Assembly (NCBI GenBank): GCA_964457685.1
Contig: CAYWFS010000005.1
Coordinates: 1 to 62,206, forward strand
Source of the DNA: an uncultured Ruminococcus sp.
GTDB taxonomy: Bacteria > Bacillota > Clostridia > Oscillospirales > CAG-272
Length of the DNA: 62,206 nt
Direction of reading: 5' to 3'
Shown here: one piece after another, positions 28,783 to 44,087 of the stretch
How positions within the stretch are numbered: position 1 is the stretch's first letter
Layout: every line of letters begins with the position of its first letter
Program-made: the position numbers and the translations under genes
The notes under the pieces: model-generated
Seen by the model: the letters and a program-made list of their open reading frames with translations, nothing else
Databases searched by the model: none
What the model was told of the DNA's origin: nothing

Positions 28783-31011
28783 ATGCAATTTTTATACGCA
28801 CTGATCAACTTTCTGATACTTGCATTCCTTGTGTGGCTGCTCGGCAGAAAGATGATTGCCTCGATATTCCAAAAGAGGCTGGAAAAAATAAACAAAGAGC
28901 TTGATGAAGCCGAAGAAATAGAGCGAACCGAATACGAGTCTCCCGATCTTCCCGACATACCGCTCAAAACCGACGGTGAAATTACAAAAGTAGCCGAAAA
29001 GAAGATAGAAGCTATCGAACATTCCAAGGAAGAACGCATTGACAATATCAAAAAGCATTGCGATGCCGAAATACTTGAAATGTGCTACGATATTGTATCG
29101 GGAAAAAGAGGGGAGCTTATAGTTAAGGTAAGAGACAGAATCGCCTCTCTCCTTGCAAGTGAGCCTTATCATACGGAGCTTCATGAAAGACTTATAGGTA
29201 TGGCTGACAAAATCCTCGAGTGCATAAAGCTTACTCCCGGTGACATCGCATACCTTAATAACCACGATGTTCTTTACGTTACACTTACCTCCGCAGAGCC
29301 GCTTCCCGATTACATCGTCGAAAAAATAGATGAAAAAACAAAGCAGCTTGTCGGAGAAGTAAACGGAAAGACTTCTCTTTGGGTCAGAGTTGACGAGGAG
29401 CTTATCGGCGGTCTCAGACTCCGTATAGGTGATACCGTTTATGACTCAACAGTTACAAACCATTTGTACAATCTTCAGAAAACTCTCGAAAAGCGTCCCC
29501 TCCATGGTGATGAAACTCCCGAGGAGATAATAGCGGACGTGCTCGAGGGAATATCCTCCATAGACATGGAAATACAGCAGTTCCAGCTCGGACGTGTAAT
29601 CAGCATTTCCGATGGTATCTGTTGGCTTGACGGTCTTGCGGATATAATGTACGGCGAAGTAGTCGAATTCGATTGCGGTGAACGAGGAATGGTTCTCGAT
29701 ATCGAGCATGACAAAATCGGCTGTATAGTATACGGAAGCTATGAGCATATTGAAGCCGGAAGCCGTGTAAGACGTGTGGGCAGAATAGCAAGCGTTTCCG
29801 TTGGTGAAGAGCTTCTTGGACGAGTTGTAGACCCTCTCGGTCATGCACTTGACGGCAGAGGCAGAATCTGGACTAAAGAAAAGCGTCCGATAGAGTTTGC
29901 GGCTCCCTCGATTCCCGACAGAGGTGCGGTATGCCGTCCTATGCACACGGGTATCAAAGCTATCGACGCACTTGTTCCGATAGGAAAGGGTCAGCGTGAG
30001 CTTATCATAGGCGACCGTCAGACAGGTAAATCCTCGATAATCCTCGATACGATAATAAATCAGAGAGGAAACGATACCATCTGTATCTATGTTGCAATAG
30101 GTCAGAAGGATACCACAATCGCAGAGGTAGTTGACAAACTCGAAAAGAACGGTGCCATGAATTATACTACAATAGTGTGTGCTCCTGCTTCAAGCTCGGC
30201 ATCACTCCAGTATATAGCACCGTTTGCGGGAGCGGCAATGGCTGAATACTTTATGTACTCCGGCAGAGACGTTCTTATATTCTACGATGACCTCTCAAAG
30301 CACGCAGTAGCATACCGTGAGCTTTCACTCCTACTTCATAGACCCTCCGGTCGTGAAGCATATCCGGGTGACGTGTTCTACCTCCATTCAAGACTTCTCG
30401 AACGTGCCGCACAGCTGTCCGAAGAGCTTGGTGGCGGTTCAATGACTGCACTTCCCGTAATCGAAACTCAGGCAGGAGATATTTCCGCATATATACCGAC
30501 AAACGTAATTTCCATAACAGACGGTCAGATATTCCTCGAATCCGAGCTGTTCAATGAGGGACAGAGACCGGCGGTCAACGTGGGTCTTTCGGTATCCCGT
30601 GTGGGAAGTGCCGCTCAGACAAAGCTCATGAAGCAGGTATCGGGCAGCCTTAGAATGCGTCTTGCTCAGTACAGAGAGCTTGCGGGATTTGCACAGTTCG
30701 GCTCAGATCTCGACGCAGATACAAAATCGGTTCTTGATTCCGGTAAGCGTATGATGGCGGCTCTCAGACAGGGAAGATTCGCTCCCCTTGAGGACTGGCA
30801 GCAGGCACTTATCATATTTGCACTTTCCGAGGGATTTGCTTCTACAGTTGCCGAAAAAGATATTGCGGATTATGAGCGTGAGCTTTATTCCTATTTTGAA
30901 GCAAACTGCGGAGATATAGTTTCCGAGCTTAAAACAGGTGCTAAAATGTCTCCCGAGCTTATGACAAAAATAAAGAACGCACTCTCCGAAATGGCGAAAG
31001 CAGAGGCATAA
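28783..31011 (+). CDS. atpA: Fused ATP synthase subunit: b-like anchor, delta (OSCP) C-terminal domain and a full alpha subunit
   Basis: Single uninterrupted 742-aa ORF. Residues 1-25 form a b-type TM helix (MQFLYALINFLILAFLVWLLGRKMI) followed by a coiled coil. Residues about 165-235 match the delta C-terminal domain (VTLTSAEPLP...VDEELIGGLRLRIGDTVYDSTVTNHLYNL). Residues from about 245 are a complete alpha (GRVISISDGICWLDGLADIMYGEVVEF..., Walker A GDRQTGKSS). Confidence 0.85.
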   Translation: MQFLYALINFLILAFLVWLLGRKMIASIFQKRLEKINKELDEAEEIERTEYESPDLPDIPLKTDGEITKVAEKKIEAIEHSKEERIDNIKKHCDAEILEMCYDIVSGKRGELIVKVRDRIASLLASEPYHTELHERLIGMADKILECIKLTPGDIAYLNNHDVLYVTLTSAEPLPDYIVEKIDEKTKQLVGEVNGKTSLWVRVDEELIGGLRLRIGDTVYDSTVTNHLYNLQKTLEKRPLHGDETPEEIIADVLEGISSIDMEIQQFQLGRVISISDGICWLDGLADIMYGEVVEFDCGERGMVLDIEHDKIGCIVYGSYEHIEAGSRVRRVGRIASVSVGEELLGRVVDPLGHALDGRGRIWTKEKRPIEFAAPSIPDRGAVCRPMHTGIKAIDALVPIGKGQRELIIGDRQTGKSSIILDTIINQRGNDTICIYVAIGQKDTTIAEVVDKLEKNGAMNYTTIVCAPASSSASLQYIAPFAGAAMAEYFMYSGRDVLIFYDDLSKHAVAYRELSLLLHRPSGREAYPGDVFYLHSRLLERAAQLSEELGGGSMTALPVIETQAGDISAYIPTNVISITDGQIFLESELFNEGQRPAVNVGLSVSRVGSAAQTKLMKQVSGSLRMRLAQYRELAGFAQFGSDLDADTKSVLDSGKRMMAALRQGRFAPLEDWQQALIIFALSEGFASTVAEKDIADYERELYSYFEANCGDIVSELKTGAKMSPELMTKIKNALSEMAKAEA

Positions 31012-37532: not shown

Positions 37533-37561
37533 TTGACAATTCAGGCGGTGTATGCTATAAT
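37533..37561 (+). promoter_or_regulatory. Promoter of the dlt-like cluster (TTGACA-17-TATAAT)
   Basis: TTGACAattcaggcggtgtatgcTATAAT is a perfect consensus about 42 nt upstream of the ATG at 37603. Confidence 0.75.
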
Positions 37562-37602
37562 AACTTGTAATAATGCGATGTTATCTGAATGAGGGGAAAA
37601 CT

Positions 37603-39132
37603 ATGTATCAGCTGAATAATGCCGCCGAATATCTCGTAAAAACCGCGGCTCGAATCCCGAATAAGCTTGCCTTTGCCGATGACGGTCGAGGATATACGTT
37701 CGGTGAACTGCTTGCGGCTTCAATGAGTGCGGGTGAGCAAATATATCGTGAAGTCGAAGGAATAAGAAAGCGTATTGCCGTTATCGTGGACAGAAGTGCC
37801 GTGTCGCTTGTCGGTTGCTTCGGGGTGCTTTTTGCCGGCTCCTGCTATGTTCCGATAGACAACAAAATGCCTGAAGACAGAATGAACGATATACTCTCTC
37901 AGATAGAGCCGTCGGCAGTTCTGTATTCGCTGAAGGACAAAAAAACCGCGGCAAAGCTTGAGGGAAAATATAAAACTCTTCTTATCGAGGAAATATCCGA
38001 AAAGCCTTATGACCCGTTTTTGTGGGATAAAATATCGGCAGAGGTTCTCGATATCGACCCGGCTTATATGATATTTACATCAGGCTCTACAGGAAAGCCG
38101 AAAGGTATACTTATCTCCCACAGAAGCCTTATAGATTTTACGGAATGGATGGCGGAGACTACGGAAATTACCGAAGACAGTGTACTCGGAAATCAGGCAC
38201 CGTTCTATTTTGACCTCTCGGTAAAGGATATATATCAGACTCTCAGAAACGGCTGTACGACCTACATCATCGCAAAGAAGCTGTTTATGTTCCCGACACT
38301 GCTTGTTGATTATCTGAACGAACATGAGGTGAACACTCTTATTTGGGCTACATCTGCGTTCAGAATGGTTGCGGATTCGGGAATATTCGAGAAAAAACAG
38401 CCGAGCAGCATAAGAAAAGCGATTCTCGGCGGTGAAGCTTTACAGGCAAAGCACGTCAATAAATGGAAAAAAGCAGTTCCGAATATCAACGTGATAAATC
38501 TCTACGGACCTACAGAGGTAACCGTTGACTGTACATACTATAAGCTTGAGCGTGATTTTGAAGACGGTGAGCCGATTCCGATCGGAAAAGCCTGCAAAAA
38601 CATGGAGGTTATCCTGCTTGACGATGAACTGAGACCGGTAGAAGACGGAGAAGCAGGGGAAATATGCGTGCGTGGAATAGGACTTGCTCTCGGATATTTC
38701 GGAGACAGCGAGAAAACCGAAAAAGCATTCATACAAAACCCAATGAATCCGTACTATCCCGATAAGCTGTATCGCACGGGAGATATTGCAAAAAGACTGC
38801 CCGACGGAAATCTCGTGTTCCTCTCACGTCGAGACAATCAGATAAAGCACATGGGTTATCGCATTGAGCTTGGGGAAATAGAAAACGCACTGTCGGCTGT
38901 CAGCGGTGTAGGAGACGCTATTTGCTTCTTTGATTCCGATGATGACGCTATCGTATGTTGCTGTGCATCTTCTCTTGATCAAACAGAGCTTGCGGTAAGT
39001 CTAAAGGACAAGGTTCCGCGTTATATGCTTCCGAATGTTTGGAGAATATACGACAGACTTCCGATAAATGCGAACGGAAAGATTGACCGCCCACGTCTCA
39101 AGGAAAGCTACTTCAATGAAAAAAATAAATGA
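37603..39132 (+). CDS. DltA-like amino-acid adenylation enzyme (carrier-protein ligase)
   Basis: A-domain core motifs FTSGSTGKPKG, FYFDLSV (Asp that binds an alpha-amino group), LYGPTE, YRTGD and NGKIDR are present. The start is set to the ATG at 37603, after GAGGGGAAAACT. Confidence 0.8.
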   Translation: MYQLNNAAEYLVKTAARIPNKLAFADDGRGYTFGELLAASMSAGEQIYREVEGIRKRIAVIVDRSAVSLVGCFGVLFAGSCYVPIDNKMPEDRMNDILSQIEPSAVLYSLKDKKTAAKLEGKYKTLLIEEISEKPYDPFLWDKISAEVLDIDPAYMIFTSGSTGKPKGILISHRSLIDFTEWMAETTEITEDSVLGNQAPFYFDLSVKDIYQTLRNGCTTYIIAKKLFMFPTLLVDYLNEHEVNTLIWATSAFRMVADSGIFEKKQPSSIRKAILGGEALQAKHVNKWKKAVPNINVINLYGPTEVTVDCTYYKLERDFEDGEPIPIGKACKNMEVILLDDELRPVEDGEAGEICVRGIGLALGYFGDSEKTEKAFIQNPMNPYYPDKLYRTGDIAKRLPDGNLVFLSRRDNQIKHMGYRIELGEIENALSAVSGVGDAICFFDSDDDAIVCCCASSLDQTELAVSLKDKVPRYMLPNVWRIYDRLPINANGKIDRPRLKESYFNEKNK

Positions 39133-39901
39133 TATATCGGAGCTGACCTCTCTTGTTAATGCTCATTTCGGCAGGGAATATGCTACAAACTATTTTCTCA
39201 GCCGAGATGAAGCGGAAAAATACATTGCAAACGGAGATATGCTGTTTACCGAGCAAAACGGAAGCCTGTTCATTGTTCGCAGAAAGGGCGAGTTTTCCAC
39301 AATGTATTACTCCGTGAAGATAGGAGATGGAATTAACCTTTCTTTTCTCGATTTATGCCCGTGGTGCTGTACGGTTGTCGAGACTGCTTTCCGAGAAAAA
39401 GATATTGGACTGAAATCAGCGGATGAAGCACTTATAAACGGAGGTGCCGTGCGTGAGTTCTTTAGGAAGAGAATGGCAAGGAAAAGCCCCGAAGACAGCA
39501 TAACGGACACACTTTCCGAGAAAATACATTATGCCGAAGACATAAAATATGTGTACGACCTCATGTATTCGTCATTTTCGCCGCTTACCGGGTGCTTGCC
39601 TACAGAATCGGAGACAAGCGAAGCCGTAAAAGAGAGGGAGATACTTTGTCACGAAAGCGGAGGAATTTTGCATTTCAAAAAGGCAAAGGCTTCATATGAG
39701 CTGAGACATCTTTGCGTTGACGAATGTGCGAGAGGGCAGGGAATAGGTGCGTCTCTTGTTAAGGCATATAACGGAATTGTTCCTAAAAAAAGCGTTGTAT
39801 GGGTGAGAGAGGGTTATACTCCCGCCGAAAAAATATATGAAAACAACGGATATACTGCCGACGGAATGCGTTCCTCGGTACTTATATACAAGAAAGGATA
39901 A
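39116..39901 (+). CDS. GNAT-family N-acetyltransferase-like protein
   Basis: The start is set to the ATG at 39116, a 17-nt overlap with the upstream gene. The C-terminal half has the acetyl-CoA motif A LCVDECARGQGIGASLVKAY. The N-terminal half is unassigned. Confidence 0.65.
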   Translation: MKKINDISELTSLVNAHFGREYATNYFLSRDEAEKYIANGDMLFTEQNGSLFIVRRKGEFSTMYYSVKIGDGINLSFLDLCPWCCTVVETAFREKDIGLKSADEALINGGAVREFFRKRMARKSPEDSITDTLSEKIHYAEDIKYVYDLMYSSFSPLTGCLPTESETSEAVKEREILCHESGGILHFKKAKASYELRHLCVDECARGQGIGASLVKAYNGIVPKKSVVWVREGYTPAEKIYENNGYTADGMRSSVLIYKKG

Positions 39902-39906
39902 CAAAA

Positions 39907-40146
39907 ATGAAAAACGAAAACAAGGAAAAGCTTCTCGAAATACTTACCGACATCTGTCCCGATGTGGATTTTGAAAACGAAACCGAGCTTATAGACGACG
40001 GACTTATCGAGTCCCTCGACATAGTTGCAATAGTTACGGAAATAATGGCGGAGTTTGACGTTGAAATTAACGTAGACGACCTTCTTCCCGAAAACTTTAA
40101 CTCCGTAGACGCTATTCTTGAGCTTATAGAATCAAAGAGAGACTGA
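39907..40146 (+). CDS. DltC-like acyl/aminoacyl carrier protein
   Basis: 79 aa and acidic, with the phosphopantetheine Ser context DDGLIESLDIVAIV. Confidence 0.8.
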   Translation: MKNENKEKLLEILTDICPDVDFENETELIDDGLIESLDIVAIVTEIMAEFDVEINVDDLLPENFNSVDAILELIESKRD

Positions 40147-41729
40147 TGAACTTTATATCGGTATCATTTATCGTATTCCTCGCCGTAACTGTATTTGTGT
40201 ACTATGTAATGCCGAAAAGCATTGCGTGGTGTGCGTTGCTTGCGGCGAGCTGCGTTTTTTATCTGTGGGGCGGAGGATACAAGACGATACTGTATCTTGT
40301 GTTTACCTCACTGCTTACGTTTTTTGCGGGAATACTTCTCGAAAAGCTTAACTCAGAGAAGACGCTTATTCCGAAAAACGAAAAAGAACGGCTTGATGCT
40401 CTGACCAAAAAGAAAAAAGCCGTAGTTGCTGTTGTCTGCGTGATTCTTTTCGGTATGCTCTACATACTTAAATACCTTGATTTCACGCTGAATATAGTAA
40501 ACTCACTTCTTTCCGCTGTAGGAAAAACGGAGACGATTACCGCTCCCTCATTGCTTGTTCCCCTCGGAGTGTCGTTTTACATATTCCAGTCTATCGGATA
40601 TGTTATCGACTGCTACAGAGGAAAATATAAGGCACAGCACAACTATGCAAAGTACGCACTTTTTGTTTCGTTCTTTCCGCAGATAGTGCAGGGACCTATA
40701 TCGAGATATGATGTCCTCGGAGAACAGCTTACAAAAAAAGCTTATCTCGACTGCGATAACCTCCGTGATGGCATACAGCGTATAATGTGGGGATATTTCA
40801 AAAAAATGGTAATTGCAGACCGTGCCGCAGTAGCCGTAACGGCATTTTTTAAGTCCTATGACAGCTACGGAGGTGCGGTGAGTGCGTTTGCGGTGCTTAT
40901 GTATTGCATAAATCTGTACTGCGACTTCTCGGGCGGTATAGATATAACGATAGGTTCGGCAAAGCTGTTTGGAATTACCATGGAAGAAAACTTCGCACGA
41001 CCTATTTTTGCAACCTCTCTTTCGGAATACTGGAGAAGATGGCACATTACACTCGGCGGTTGGATGAGAGACTATGTATTCTATCCTCTCTCCCTATCAA
41101 AGCCGTTCGGTAAGCTCGGAAAATGGTCGAGAAAGAAGATCGGCGGAAAATTCGGAAAAATACTTCCTACAACACTTGCTACGTTTATAATTTACCTGAT
41201 AATAGGCATATGGCACGGTGCTAACTTCCGATACATCGCATACGGCTTTTATAACGGAACAATAATTACGTCTTCCGTTCTTCTTGCCGGAGTATATTCA
41301 AAAGCCAAAAAGAAGCTTAATATAGATTCCGATTCAAAGGGATGGAAAATCTTCTCGATGATAAGAACAGGAGTAATAGTATTTATCGGACGCTATATCA
41401 CACGCTCTCCGAGACTTCTTGTTGCTGTAAAGCTCATAATAAGAAGCGTAAATCCGCTATCACTTCATGTACATGAGCTTTGGGACGGAACGGTGCTTAA
41501 CCTCGGACTTTCTACCTCGGATTACATAGTTATCGCACTGTCTCTTGCGGTTCTTCTTGCGTTTGAGCTTTATGAGGAAATCAAGGGAGAAAGCGTTACT
41601 GCCACCTTAAACAGAAAGAATGGGGGAGTGCAGTTTGCCTTCCTTATTTGCACCGTTCTTATTATACTGTTCTTCGGAATAATGAGAGGCTCATATATAT
41701 CCTCCGAATTTATCTACAAGCAGTATTGA
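40146..41729 (+). CDS. MBOAT family membrane O-acyltransferase (DltB/AlgI-like)
   Basis: 527 aa and polytopic. The conserved His context is SEYWRRWHITLGGWMRDYVFYPL. A TGATG junction links it to the carrier gene. Confidence 0.85.
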   Translation: MNFISVSFIVFLAVTVFVYYVMPKSIAWCALLAASCVFYLWGGGYKTILYLVFTSLLTFFAGILLEKLNSEKTLIPKNEKERLDALTKKKKAVVAVVCVILFGMLYILKYLDFTLNIVNSLLSAVGKTETITAPSLLVPLGVSFYIFQSIGYVIDCYRGKYKAQHNYAKYALFVSFFPQIVQGPISRYDVLGEQLTKKAYLDCDNLRDGIQRIMWGYFKKMVIADRAAVAVTAFFKSYDSYGGAVSAFAVLMYCINLYCDFSGGIDITIGSAKLFGITMEENFARPIFATSLSEYWRRWHITLGGWMRDYVFYPLSLSKPFGKLGKWSRKKIGGKFGKILPTTLATFIIYLIIGIWHGANFRYIAYGFYNGTIITSSVLLAGVYSKAKKKLNIDSDSKGWKIFSMIRTGVIVFIGRYITRSPRLLVAVKLIIRSVNPLSLHVHELWDGTVLNLGLSTSDYIVIALSLAVLLAFELYEEIKGESVTATLNRKNGGVQFAFLICTVLIILFFGIMRGSYISSEFIYKQY

Positions 41730-41770
41730 TTTATTCGTGAAAATTAAATTTCCGTGAAGGAGTAAATATA

Positions 41771-43594
41771 TTGAATTCAAAAAAATGGCTGGTGATGTTC
41801 GGCTCTACAGTGGCTGTTATACTTGTCCTTATCGGTACGTTCAACTATGTGACAGACCCGTTCGGAGTATTCGGGGATAAGATAATGAACTGGTTCAGCT
41901 ACGATATAACGAACAATCCCCGAACAGCTAAAATATCGTACCTCGATGAGCATTACGAGGAATATGATTCATATATAATCGGTTGCTCGTCAACGTCTTC
42001 CTTTCCGACAGAGGATTTCGGTAAATATCTTGACGCAAATTTCTATAACATGATAATGTACGGTGCGGATATGCTTGACGTTGAGCAGACCGTCTCTTAC
42101 ATGATAGAAAACTACACGGTAAAAAATCTTGTCGTTAACGTGTATATAGACAACGGTGCAGTGTATGACGAAGAATCGAACAAGTACACGCATTCCATGA
42201 TGGCTCGTGTTGACGGCTCAGATCCCCTCGGCTTTTACTCTCGATTCCTTTTTGCCACACCATCATACGGAGTCGCAAAGCTTAAAGCGTATCAGAGCAA
42301 GACATGGCTTTCACAGTATTACAATATATTCGATGAAAAAACGGGAGCATACGATAAACGCAGACGTGATATAGAGCCTATTTCCGACCTCGACAGCTAC
42401 TATACCGCATACCCCGAGTTTACAAACTATCCGCACGGTAATTATCTTCTTCCCGCTGTTGATGAGTGCCTTGAAAGCATGGAAAACATAGTTGCGATGT
42501 GCGATGAAAATGACGTAAATCTCATTGTTGTTACCGCACCCGTGTACTATGAATACATGAACAATTTCTATCCCGAGTCGGTATGTTCTTTCTATACCCG
42601 TCTTGCGGAGGTAGTTGATTTCTGGGATTTTTCGTATTCATCCGTAAGCTTTGAGCCGAGATATTTCTATGACAGAACGCATTTCAGAAACAATGTCGGT
42701 CATATGGCGGCGGCAAGAATATTCGGAGATGACAGCGTGTATATCCCCGATGATTTCGGATACCTTGTTACGGCGGAAAACGCAGAGGAATATTTCGAGA
42801 CTTATTTCGAGGCTGAGGAGCTTAAAGCGGAGGACTATACAAAGGATGTTCCCGTTCTTATGTACCACAATATCGCCGAGGAAGTAAACGATATGACCGT
42901 TACCCCCGAGACGTTCAGAGAGCAGATGGAAGCACTTAAAGCGAACGGCTACACTGCTATAACCCTCGAGGATATGGTGAATTACGTTTATTACGGCGGA
43001 GAACTTCCCGAAAAGCCCGTGCTTATAACTTTCGATGACGGATACTACAGTAACTATGAATATGCTTATCCCGTGCTTGAGGAACTTGAAATGCACGGAG
43101 TAATATTCGCAGTCGGAGTAAGCTTCGGATGTGATACCTATCTCGATACCGATGTGCCGATAACACCGCATTTCGGTGAGGATGAGGCTGTAGAAATGGT
43201 AAGCTCCGGCGTGATTTCCGTGCAGAGTCACACCTACGATATGCACCGCAACGAGACCTACGAGAAGGAAGCACGTCACGATATTACCCCTCTTCCCGGC
43301 GAAAGTGAGGAGGACTACATCGAGACAGTACGCTCCGATCTTGCAAAGTCAAAGGAATTTCTCGAAGGTATCACGGGAGAAGAAGTATATGCACTCTCTT
43401 ATCCGCAGGGAAAGAGAACAGACAATGCCGCAAGAATAGCAGTTGAGGAGGGATATAACGTCACATTCTCAACCGATTGGGGAGTACACCAACTTGTTCG
43501 CGGACTCGGACAGTCACTGTATGCGGTAAAGAGAATGCACGTCTCAAACGATGTAACTCCCGAAAAGCTTATTGAGATGGTATCGGGAAACTGA
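41771..43594 (+). CDS. Membrane-anchored fusion of an N-terminal DltD/SGNH-reminiscent domain with a C-terminal CE4 (NodB) polysaccharide deacetylase
   Basis: 607 aa. An N-terminal TM helix is followed by a domain of about 330 aa containing IIGCSSTSSF. The C-terminal part has VLMYHNI, LITFDDGYYSNYEYAYPVLEE and QSHTYDMH. TTG start 8 nt after GAAGGAG. Confidence 0.75.
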   Translation: MNSKKWLVMFGSTVAVILVLIGTFNYVTDPFGVFGDKIMNWFSYDITNNPRTAKISYLDEHYEEYDSYIIGCSSTSSFPTEDFGKYLDANFYNMIMYGADMLDVEQTVSYMIENYTVKNLVVNVYIDNGAVYDEESNKYTHSMMARVDGSDPLGFYSRFLFATPSYGVAKLKAYQSKTWLSQYYNIFDEKTGAYDKRRRDIEPISDLDSYYTAYPEFTNYPHGNYLLPAVDECLESMENIVAMCDENDVNLIVVTAPVYYEYMNNFYPESVCSFYTRLAEVVDFWDFSYSSVSFEPRYFYDRTHFRNNVGHMAAARIFGDDSVYIPDDFGYLVTAENAEEYFETYFEAEELKAEDYTKDVPVLMYHNIAEEVNDMTVTPETFREQMEALKANGYTAITLEDMVNYVYYGGELPEKPVLITFDDGYYSNYEYAYPVLEELEMHGVIFAVGVSFGCDTYLDTDVPITPHFGEDEAVEMVSSGVISVQSHTYDMHRNETYEKEARHDITPLPGESEEDYIETVRSDLAKSKEFLEGITGEEVYALSYPQGKRTDNAARIAVEEGYNVTFSTDWGVHQLVRGLGQSLYAVKRMHVSNDVTPEKLIEMVSGN

Positions 43595-43599
43595 ACAGA

Positions 43600-43652
43600 T
43601 AAAAAAACAGCTGAGGTTAACCCTTTAAATCAGGTTAATTACAGCTGTTTTT
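43600..43652. terminator. Bidirectional intrinsic terminator between the dlt-like cluster and aroQ
   Basis: AAAAAAACAGCTG, a loop with the inner GGTTAA/TTAACC-like pairing, then CAGCTGTTTTT. Confidence 0.75.
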
Positions 43653-43655
43653 GTA

Positions 43656-44087
43656 TTATTTCAGTATATCCGCAAGATACAGAATAGCTTCACGGTATCC
43701 GTCAAGTCCGTGTCCTGCTATTGTTTTTGTGGCGGCGAGAGAAACATACGAAAATTGTCGGAAGGACTCTCTTTGGCTTATGTCGGAGATGTGTACCTCA
43801 ACGGTAGGTATTCCTACGGCTTTGAGTGCGTCAAGGATTGCAACGCTTGTGTGGGTATATGCCGCAGGATTTATTACGATTCCGTCGAATTTTCCGTAGG
43901 CAGACTGTATCTTGTCAACAATATCGCCCTCGTGATTTGACTGAAAATGCTCGTATTTGATTCCGTTTTCGGTGCAAGTGTCGTCAATCAGGCTGAGAAG
44001 TGCGTTATAGTCCTGTTTTCCGTAAATATCAGGCTCCCGTATACCAAGCATATTGATGTTGGGACCGTTAATTATCAGTAGAGTCAT
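43656..44087 (-). CDS. aroQ: Type II 3-dehydroquinate dehydratase
   Basis: 143 aa with LIINGPNINMLGIREPDIYG, FQSNHEG and INPAAYTHTS. Confidence 0.92.
   Translation of the reverse strand: MTLLIINGPNINMLGIREPDIYGKQDYNALLSLIDDTCTENGIKYEHFQSNHEGDIVDKIQSAYGKFDGIVINPAAYTHTSVAILDALKAVGIPTVEVHISDISQRESFRQFSYVSLAATKTIAGHGLDGYREAILYLADILK

Follow-up and report, generated by a model that had tools for sequence, protein, structure and literature searches.

What does an operon that is built like dlt do with an additional acetyltransferase and a polysaccharide deacetylase? The question is raised by a five-gene operon in a 62,206-nt stretch of DNA (hereafter the window) from contig CAYWFS010000005.1 of an uncultured Ruminococcus sp. 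A sequence-only reading of this DNA had proposed a carrier-protein-dependent envelope acylation cluster that is related to dlt in its logic, and the domain content and co-conserved gene order described below bear this proposal out. We lean, with moderate confidence, towards a self-contained carrier-fed MBOAT-SGNH relay for decoration of an extracytoplasmic glycan, which would operate in a Dlt-like manner but with components from different lineages. The predicted features are given below; all open reading frames (ORFs) lie on the + strand.

37533..37561, + strand: sigma-70-type promoter, TTGACA-17-TATAAT with an extended -10 TG, 12/12 consensus match
37603..39132, + strand: stand-alone adenylation enzyme (A), 509 residues; an alternative upstream ATG lies at 37573
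39116..39901, + strand: tandem-GNAT acyltransferase, 261 residues (Acetyltransf_7, AlphaFold model, Foldseek)
39907..40146, + strand: carrier protein (CP), 79 residues (PP-binding; Ser36 in ESLD)
40146..41729, + strand: MBOAT, 527 residues, of the fused-motif (AlgI/PatA-like) lineage (PF03062; His300 in WRRWH)
41709..41726, + strand: putative acyl-shuttle hexapeptide F522-I-Y524-K-Q-Y527 at the MBOAT C-terminus (comparison with orthologue and DltX motifs)
41771..43594, + strand: P5, predicted membrane-anchored bifunctional ecto-protein, 607 residues, TTG start (ORF, AlphaFold helix 4-28)
41900..42793, + strand: SGNH-fold transferase domain of P5, residues ~44-341 (structure comparison, conserved Ser/Asp/His)
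42821..43591, + strand: CE4 de-N-acetylase domain of P5, residues ~351-607 (PF01522, structure comparison)
43598..43657, strand.: bidirectional intrinsic-terminator-like hairpin at the boundary between the operon and a convergent aroQ gene

The five co-directional genes and the perfect promoter in front of them, as first described from the sequence, were all recovered, and among 21 promoter-like sites between 37200 and 44200 only the site at 37533-37561 reaches 12/12. The gene junctions, described as packed apart from a 41-nt gap before the last gene, also read the same when re-examined: the A and GNAT genes share 17 nt, and there is an AAGGA Shine-Dalgarno sequence; 5 nt separate the GNAT and CP genes; CP and MBOAT meet in a TGATG; and in the 41 nt between MBOAT and P5 an AGGAG lies ahead of the TTG start. 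For A, the ATG at 37603 is favored as the start, since it follows a GAGGGG Shine-Dalgarno sequence and coincides with the N-termini of orthologues. The downstream hairpin is preceded by an A-run and followed by a U-run, with a predicted stability of -23.3 kcal/mol (z -6.32) that was equaled by 0/200 shuffles. Promoter, tight or overlapping junctions and terminator together define what is, as predicted from sequence, one transcription unit. The five original domain calls likewise agree with Pfam and NCBIfam profile searches, although several of the family names attached to them had to be revised.

In the Dlt pathway (DltX-A-B-C-D), as described in the sections of PMC12148441 cited here, a ligase-loaded carrier feeds an MBOAT, which passes the acyl group to the Tyr of an FxYxxF hexapeptide, and an SGNH ecto-protein then delivers it to the polymer. 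The operon shares with this scheme an adenylating ligase, a small carrier, an MBOAT, a shuttle-Tyr hexapeptide and an SGNH-fold ecto-protein. Its carrier protein matches Pfam PP-binding (22.8 bits, cut-off 20.8), and Ser36 in ESLD is the likely phosphopantetheine attachment site. The best NCBIfam match is a DltC model, PRK05087, with a score of 32.7 that falls below the cut-off of 68, as does the score for a second DltC model (26, cut-off 52.35); the earlier designation of a DltC-like carrier thus holds for the carrier and is less certain for DltC. Similarly, the MBOAT matches PF03062 (66.1 bits, cut-off 27) and stays below the cut-off of the DltB model TIGR04091 (152.9 against 375), with a match confined to residues 115-418. 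Canonical genomic DltB proteins of 384-388 residues align only to residues ~113-418 of the MBOAT, and the C-terminal addition of the latter ends in FIYKQY, the last residue being Tyr rather than Phe. Orthologues have F or Y at this position. The same type of ending is found in 12/12 orthologues from the GNAT-seeded survey described below (FIYKQ[YF], one of them SIYRQF) and, as FxYxx[FY], in 14 further MBOATs from the two types of loci introduced there. It nearly equals the ending of canonical DltX ORFs located beside DltA (FIYNEF or FIYNQF).

In excerpts of PMC12148441, FXYXXF is described as an "acyl shuttle" motif, whose Tyr receives the acyl group in DltX and undergoes auto-acetylation in PatA, and in non-Dlt MBOATs the motif is placed on two extra C-terminal helices. 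The absence of a DltX mini-ORF, reported in the sequence-only reading, was confirmed in all six frames of the 62-kb window, where the only stop-to-stop frame of at least 20 residues ending in F.Y..[FY] is the MBOAT itself. Judging from these motifs, and within what the cited sections state, DltX is not missing but replaced by the MBOAT's own C-terminal FIYKQY, in which Tyr524 is presumed, by analogy, to be the acyl acceptor. In a 26-sequence maximum-likelihood tree canonical DltB proteins form a separate clade (100/100 split), and the window MBOAT groups with MBOATs from FkbH-type loci (see below) and with the two other MBOATs of its own genome. The earlier assignment to a DltB/AlgI type can therefore be narrowed to the AlgI/PatA-like fused-motif lineage, with DltB set aside on both score and clade. 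The two other MBOATs of the genome (contig C17, 14358-15764, and contig C60, 4508-5875) also carry a fused motif, with the ends FLYFRY and FLYFRF, and each is followed by a DHHW/AlgX-like protein. The PatA/PatB and AlgI/AlgJ O-acetylation systems, as far as they are described in the cited text, resemble the operon in their two extra C-terminal MBOAT helices with the shuttle motif and in their SGNH partner, as well as in the grouping of the window MBOAT with these two DHHW/AlgX-paired proteins. They differ in that a dedicated carrier and loader are always encoded beside the operon-type MBOAT, whereas MBOAT/SGNH pathways other than Dlt are said, in the same sections of PMC12148441, to use no carrier protein and an acyl-CoA donor.

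The last gene, P5, had been described as a membrane-anchored protein ending in a CE4 domain. Both the anchor (an N-terminal helix, residues 4-28, in an AlphaFold model of mean predicted local distance difference test score (pLDDT) 76.1) and the CE4 domain are retained here, and between them lies an SGNH domain at ~44-341 that had gone unrecognized. Pfam searches with residues 1-360 gave nothing beyond chance-level matches, and no DltD family. By structure comparison (model residues 47-341) the domain resembles TesA (VIA Z 12.1), the catalytic domain of PatB (10.9) and four DltD entries (10.1 to 9.5), the last having the longest coverage among SGNH matches (221-236 aligned residues). In Foldseek searches with P5 the four DltD entries were the only non-CE4 matches with E <1e-3 (3.6e-5 to 8e-4). 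Ser73 (GCSSTSS) and Asp301-x-x-His304 (YDRTH) are conserved across 21 proteins and correspond to SGNH blocks I and V. With the DHHW protein that accompanies one of the genome's other MBOATs, the SGNH profile gave no significant match in hhalign. By modeled fold and by motifs, the domain would be a functional counterpart of DltD and PatB rather than a member of the DltD family; it differs from the Dlt ecto-protein in lacking a significant sequence match to DltD and in being fused to a CE4 domain. A search of 1.84 billion representative clusters with the SGNH profile gave 381 at E<=1e-30 and, at the looser threshold of E<=1e-10, 1538. Most of the top-scoring ones are fusions of ~560-620 residues, and stand-alone proteins of ~340-380 residues follow lower down; of eight stand-alone proteins scanned, two touch DUF1574, below its cut-off. 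Because of the operon anatomy and the PatA and Dlt mechanisms as outlined in the cited parts of PMC12148441, a relay in which the acyl group passes from the loader via the carrier to the His and then the C-terminal Tyr of the MBOAT, and from there by way of the SGNH Ser to the polymer, is in our view highly probable.

What the relay carries would depend on the adenylation enzyme. A matches Pfam AMP-binding (233.7 bits) and exceeds the cut-off of the generic amino-acid adenylation model TIGR01733 (361.1, cut-off 317.4), and it falls below both DltA models (TIGR01734, 300.7 against 559.85; NF003417, 309.3 against 476). Among solved structures TycA (238 bits) and SrfA-C (236) score above the best DltA entries (189-205), other DltA entries being at ~160. 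The motif FDLSV (residues 203-207) contains the amino-binding Asp204, and the catalytic Lys493 lies in NGKIDR. For BcDltA, the part of PMC4176424 cited here attributes D-Ala selectivity mainly to Cys-269, which lies 72 residues beyond the amino-binding Asp. We aligned 18 A orthologues with five DltA-like genomic proteins, three of which are above the DltA cut-off. At the Cys-269 position, 72 residues past Asp204, A has Gly276, as do 15/18 orthologues, compared with Cys in 4/5 and Val in 1/5 of the DltA-like proteins. Pocket positions 239 and 331 are Lys and Asp in A and M/L/T and Ala, respectively, in the five DltA-like proteins. The comparison of the specificity code with that of DltA, which the sequence-only reading had proposed, thus yields a different pocket; of the "DltA-like adenylation enzyme" named there, adenylation and the alpha-amino-binding Asp are kept and the DltA identity is not. 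From these sequence features we conclude that A is an NRPS (nonribosomal peptide synthetase)-type amino-acid adenylation enzyme, not a DltA equivalog, and that its substrate is probably other than D-alanine.

Its ten-residue pocket signature reads DLKSIGLVDK, with positions mapped by motif under the GrsA numbering. The position list agrees with that in PMC12283262, position 278 (Ser) being the least certain. The signature is identical at 6/10 positions to DAKDLGVV(DK), the surfactin module-1 signature that is assigned to Glu/Asp in PMC10548584, and is also close to DAQDLGVVDK, which recognizes Glu and Gln (PMC12283262). A Glu/Gln-like amino acid is our low-confidence guess for the substrate. 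The conserved Asp204 in turn says, at the level of sequence, that A would see a free alpha-amine, which implies that any acetylation comes after loading.

These results also bear on the possibility that we are dealing merely with a diverged dlt operon for the D-alanylation of teichoic acid. In its favor, ligase, carrier, MBOAT and ecto-SGNH protein follow the same parts logic, DltC and DltB models give CP and MBOAT their best NCBIfam names, and the genome has no canonical DltA or DltD. But every Dlt equivalog model is far below its cut-off, Gly replaces the D-Ala-selecting Cys in a pocket that also has Lys239 and Asp331, the MBOAT stands outside the DltB clade and bears the shuttle motif itself in place of a DltX gene, and the gene order is different, with the tandem GNAT and CE4 domain as constant extras. 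The description as a rearranged dlt operon is therefore not sustained, and we regard D-alanylation of teichoic acid by this operon as very improbable. Searches of the operon's own genome found neither a DltA-like ligase nor a canonical DltD, and neither a further SGNH-domain copy nor another P5-like CE4 protein. As far as the phylum was sampled, canonical dlt is uncommon, with DltA above cut-off in 3/121 genomes.

Two comparative surveys indicate which parts of the operon belong together. The first, seeded with the GNAT and limited to one genome per species, yielded 13 loci from Ruminococcus, Oscillospiraceae, Evtepia, Ruminiclostridium and metagenome-assembled genomes of other Clostridia. As far as their contigs reach, and except for one locus without MBOAT (L016), all share the order A-GNAT-CP-MBOAT-P5: A is present in 12/13 (one contig begins inside GNAT), CP in 13/13, MBOAT in 12/13 (not in L016), and P5 in 12/13 (one contig stops after MBOAT). 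The exceptional locus (L016, 6502-10903) retains A, GNAT and CP and has lost the MBOAT; its P5 has neither a membrane anchor nor the metal-binding and catalytic residues of CE4 (TLDGG; no HxxxxH), and the locus looks like an operon copy in decay. The second survey was seeded with P5 and covered 401 genomes of the same order, the operon's own included. P5 found matches in 214/401 genomes, nearly all over the CE4 part alone, and SGNH-part matches came from the own genome and 16 others. Among the 17 regions fetched, six have the order A-GNAT-CP-MBOAT-P5 (type 1), and seven have the order MBOAT-P5-CP-FkbH, without A and without GNAT (type 2). The rest comprise one region with an MBOAT and two SGNH paralogues and three whose type was not assignable. 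The paralogue region (L061, 8513-13101) has a type 1-like MBOAT followed by the two SGNH paralogues in tandem, whose C-terminal parts of ~200 residues have no Pfam match and no CE4 domain, and the contig stops short of any loader genes. Altogether the order A-GNAT-CP-MBOAT-SGNH::CE4 was found in 19 further loci. The co-conservation of GNAT and CE4 with A, CP and MBOAT, which the earlier reading had made the touchstone of its proposal, is thus observed across these neighborhoods.

The type 2 loci are informative as sisters of the operon. FkbH proteins in four of the seven that were scanned score 244-265 bits against TIGR01686 (cut-off 146.65), and in the P5 tree the FkbH type forms a supported clade (98/97). 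These cassettes share with type 1 the MBOAT subfamily features, an FLYF[QN]F end, the SGNH::CE4 fusion and a carrier protein; they differ in having an FkbH-domain loader for A and GNAT and in their gene order. Wherever the contig extends far enough, a CP gene lies beside the MBOAT, in 26/26 loci of types 1 and 2. The GNAT gene occurs between A and CP in 6/6 of the independently found A loci and in 0/7 FkbH loci. Because 7/7 sister loci swap A and GNAT for FkbH and keep SGNH::CE4, the gene content indicates that GNAT goes with the amino-acid loader and that CE4 is independent of GNAT. In polyketide pathways FkbH proteins provide a glycerate-derived acyl group, and by analogy the acyl group of the type 2 cassettes is presumably glycerate-derived as well. 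In two FkbH-type loci (L052, 1986-3503; L053, 6294-7979) and in one unassigned locus (L062, 5782-7296), P5 has a gene for a cofactor-independent phosphoglycerate mutase only a few kb away, a position that fits a glycerate-derived cargo.

The GNAT carries the Pfam domain Acetyltransf_7 (PF13508; 30.1 bits, cut-off 27). A GNAT-type acetyltransferase had been named at this place, and the fold is upheld, but the AlphaFold model (pLDDT 92.1) has two lobes and the protein is a tandem rather than a single GNAT. No Pfam family matched the N-lobe. A canonical CoA loop is found only in the C-terminal lobe (RGQGIG, residues 206-211), and its Q/RxxGxG/A pattern is kept in 14/14 aligned GNATs. The best Foldseek matches are VipF, MAB_4324, a Clostridium glucosamine N-acetyltransferase, MshD, WecD and a clavulanate tandem GNAT (E 9e-12 to 1e-7), followed by weaker matches to MprF and aaPGS (E 9e-7 to 2e-5). 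Small-molecule N-acetyltransferases of the MshD type have the same two lobes, of which the C-terminal one bears the single canonical CoA loop, and MshD acetylates the alpha-amine of a cysteinyl unit. The window GNAT differs from them in an identity of only 12-16%, and in belonging to a small family of its own, with invariant Cys160, His198 and Cys200, that is always encoded between loader and carrier protein. This family numbers 22 proteins at E<=1e-3 among 5.8 billion clusters, and the Protein Atlas offered generic GNAT clusters only. In addition to the Cys and His residues, the family alignment shows FSPLTGCLP and ELRHLCV to be invariant. The FSPLTGCLP loop is present in the 12 loci in which A has the FDxS Asp; in two loci, L051 and L063, A lacks this Asp and the GNAT lacks the TGC loop, with the CoA loop kept.

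We prefer to read the GNAT as an enzyme that N-acylates, specifically N-acetylates, the carrier-bound aminoacyl group, because its gene accompanies amino-acid loaders alone, its sequence co-varies with the A pocket, its CoA loop is of the acetyl-CoA type and it resembles amine N-acetyltransferases, and because Asp204 points to a free amine at loading. This preference is tentative, and we would put its chances slightly short of even. The GNAT might instead be an accessory of the loader: it could silence A as a Pat/AcuA-like lysine acetyltransferase, or it could edit or prime the carrier. AMP-forming enzymes are known to undergo acetylation at this catalytic Lys, Lys493 of A lies in a PxxxxGK context (PINANGK), the GNAT gene overlaps that of A and occurs only with it, and GNAT evolves faster than all other components. 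The PxxxxGK context is nevertheless common to NRPS A domains, and the best structural matches are to small-molecule tandem GNATs (MshD, glucosamine N-acetyltransferase, WecD) and not to the AcuA/Pat type. Moreover, co-variation of the invariant GNAT loop with the A pocket would be expected if GNAT reads the amino acid and not the A10 loop. We consider an accessory role of this kind quite unlikely.

A further possibility is that the aminoacyl-carrier itself serves the GNAT as donor, its phosphopantetheine arm occupying the CoA site, and that the enzyme forms a dipeptidyl or N-aminoacyl unit on another carrier-bound residue or diverts the amino acid to a cytoplasmic acceptor. If so, the exported group would contain more than one residue, or the operon would have two outputs. 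The tandem fold is common to aminoacyl transferases, among them the weaker matches MprF and aaPGS, and the CoA loop would presumably also accommodate a pantetheine arm. However, the loop is canonical in all aligned GNATs, as in acetyl-CoA users, and the MBOAT needs a carrier-bound donor, with the FkbH type working without GNAT. Searches for longer, fused forms (A-GNAT or CP-GNAT) found none, which is weak evidence against this activity. Transfer from the aminoacyl-carrier appears to us to be as improbable as the accessory role. Some relatives of the operon encode an extra single-domain GNAT of 183-188 residues (Acetyltransf_9/7/1, RNRGIG loop): it is located at 10641-11192 of L004, at 10636-11202 of L007 and in the MBOAT-P5 gap of L006. 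In these three close relatives the second GNAT sits between MBOAT and P5, where the window has the 41 nt mentioned above.

If N-acetylation of the cargo is accepted as the preferred role of GNAT, the CE4 domain could in principle remove the same acetyl group. The domain matches Polysacc_deac_1 (PF01522; 70.1 bits, cut-off 23.1) and is structurally close to PplD (VIA Z 28.9), PgaB (28.8), BA0330 (28.5) and IcaB (26.7). By the residue roles in PgaB, its putative catalytic and metal residues are present as His366, Asp422 and Asp423 (TFDDG), and His487 and His492 (HTYDMH); the CE4 motifs are intact in 20/21 P5 proteins, including 7/7 of the FkbH type. The domain thus shares with PgaB, IcaB and PplD the fold and with the PgaB type the His-x5-His and Asp-Asp spacing. 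It differs in falling short of the equivalog cut-offs for PgaB (116.2 against 321.9) and IcaB (64.6 against 248.35) and in being fused to an acyl-transfer domain.

The sequence-only reading had combined the two activities into a protect/deprotect scheme, in which GNAT acetylates the aminoacyl-carrier and, after export and attachment, CE4 strips that acetyl outside the cell to leave a free amine. Acetyl protection with late deacetylation is known from phosphinothricin tripeptide and from arginine biosynthesis, GNAT and CE4 occur together in every complete A-type locus, and the CE4 catalytic residues are intact. Against this scheme, the seven FkbH loci have no A or GNAT, and no amine-bearing acyl group is expected there, yet they encode SGNH::CE4 with all catalytic residues. 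In addition, the closest CE4 structures (PplD, PgaB, IcaB, BA0330), according to their entry titles, act on or bind N-acetyl sugars of polymers, and some SGNH relatives are stand-alone proteins of ~350 residues without CE4. Of the proposed scheme, acetylation of the carrier-bound amino acid by GNAT therefore remains the favored element, while deprotection by CE4 is weakened by the FkbH loci, and the scheme as a whole seems unlikely to us. Because FkbH-type loci keep SGNH::CE4 without A and GNAT, we find it reasonably probable that CE4 serves the acceptor glycan and not the acetyl group added by GNAT. CE4 may thereby form a GlcN-type residue that acts as a nucleophile for the SGNH domain or provides a neighboring charge. 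A bolder version is an extracytoplasmic N-acyl swap, in which CE4 strips the acetyl from a wall amino sugar and the SGNH domain acylates the freed amine, with an N-acetyl-glutamyl-like cargo here and a glyceroyl cargo in the FkbH sisters. We hold such a swap to be a long shot, though a somewhat better one than the protect/deprotect scheme.

The relay that we favor would then proceed as follows. A would adenylate an alpha-amino acid other than D-alanine and load it onto Ser36 of CP, and GNAT, with the single CoA loop of its C-terminal lobe, would N-acetylate the carrier-bound aminoacyl group. By analogy with PatA and DltX as presented in the cited sections of PMC12148441, His300 of the MBOAT would move the acyl group from the carrier thioester to the MBOAT's own Tyr524 at the outer face. 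From there Ser73 of the SGNH domain would take the acyl group and hand it to a wall or membrane glycan. CE4 would de-N-acetylate an amino sugar of the same acceptor polymer, and so either create the acceptor amine or edit the charge beside the new acyl group.

Several observations weigh against parts of this relay as we propose it. The SGNH part of the P5 model has stretches of pLDDT <50 (residues 133-142, 178-205 and 213-222), and a profile of 20 SGNH sequences gave no significant match to two canonical DltD proteins (hhalign E 0.062 and 0.076). The substrate call depends on a ten-residue signature with positions mapped by motif, of which position 278 is the least certain, and on a match at only 6/10 positions to a Glu signature. 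The co-variation of GNAT with the A pocket comes from two related loci (L051 and L063). GNAT is also the least conserved protein in 19/19 loci (median identity 32%, compared with 47-65% for the others), and such fast evolution would fit a looser accessory role as well. The second, single-domain GNAT of some relatives is not explained by the model, and the variable flanks of the loci give no hint of the acceptor.

With regard to precedent, we found no literature description of the A-GNAT-CP-MBOAT-SGNH::CE4 architecture, although an earlier listing in the survey of Schultz et al. 2023 is possible. Literature on FkbH together with MBOAT, as far as the retrieved excerpts go, concerned only cyanobacterial aeruginosin-type peptide natural products, and that on DltD, polysaccharide deacetylase and DltB, again in excerpt, only apparently unrelated work. 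In the sections of PMC12148441 cited here, D-alanylation of teichoic acid is treated as the sole carrier-protein-fed MBOAT-SGNH route. The operon family, as predicted from its sequences, contradicts the generalization made there that non-Dlt MBOAT/SGNH pathways are carrier-free. Together with its FkbH sisters the operon suggests a broader modular family, in which one membrane relay with SGNH::CE4 is served by different cytoplasmic loaders. The hosts of this family are Ruminococcus, Oscillospiraceae, Evtepia and related gut and rumen Clostridia, whose wall polymers are largely uncharacterized. If the model is true, these organisms would have new wall decorations, N-acetyl-amino-acid or glycerate groups beside or on de-acetylated amino sugars, with possible effects on surface charge, on phage or host recognition, and on sensitivity to lysozyme or antimicrobial peptides. 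If the N-acyl swap were true, MBOAT-SGNH relays would be a modular platform for amide-linked as well as ester-linked decorations, and fused-motif MBOATs would not be confined to acyl-CoA donors.

The genomic surroundings of the operon vary. The genes on either side are shared among close relatives only and none of them is a glycan-synthesis gene; a divergent ABC exporter pair is common to only 6/17 loci. In one locus (L047, 5498-7882) the operon has as its immediate neighbors a two-component system (HisKA/HATPase and an OmpR-type regulator) and an ABC ATPase. These neighbors are reminiscent of the peptide-sensing modules that control dlt in other Firmicutes. The operon's own genome also encodes an FkbH-like protein on another contig (C6, 15623-16474), with 26.5% identity to type 2 FkbH. 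A search with Rfam at the gathering threshold found no riboswitch or T-box that would name the amino acid upstream of the operons in 17 type 1 loci; the only hits in these loci were an unrelated tRNA, cobalamin riboswitch and lysine riboswitch elsewhere. In two relatives (L009, 13345-13596; L011, 8147-8371) a lysine riboswitch precedes a gene of the Na+/H+-antiporter family and a cobalamin riboswitch is located just downstream of the operon, both being unrelated to it. The remaining genes of the window are housekeeping genes (ATP synthase, ABC exporters and an aro operon), with convergent aro genes beyond the hairpin. Within the ATP synthase genes, a single ORF of 742 residues (28783-31008) joins three regions, resembling subunit b at residues 3-47, delta/OSCP at 160-235 and alpha at 270-736, and looks like a fusion of delta with alpha within the F-ATPase operon.

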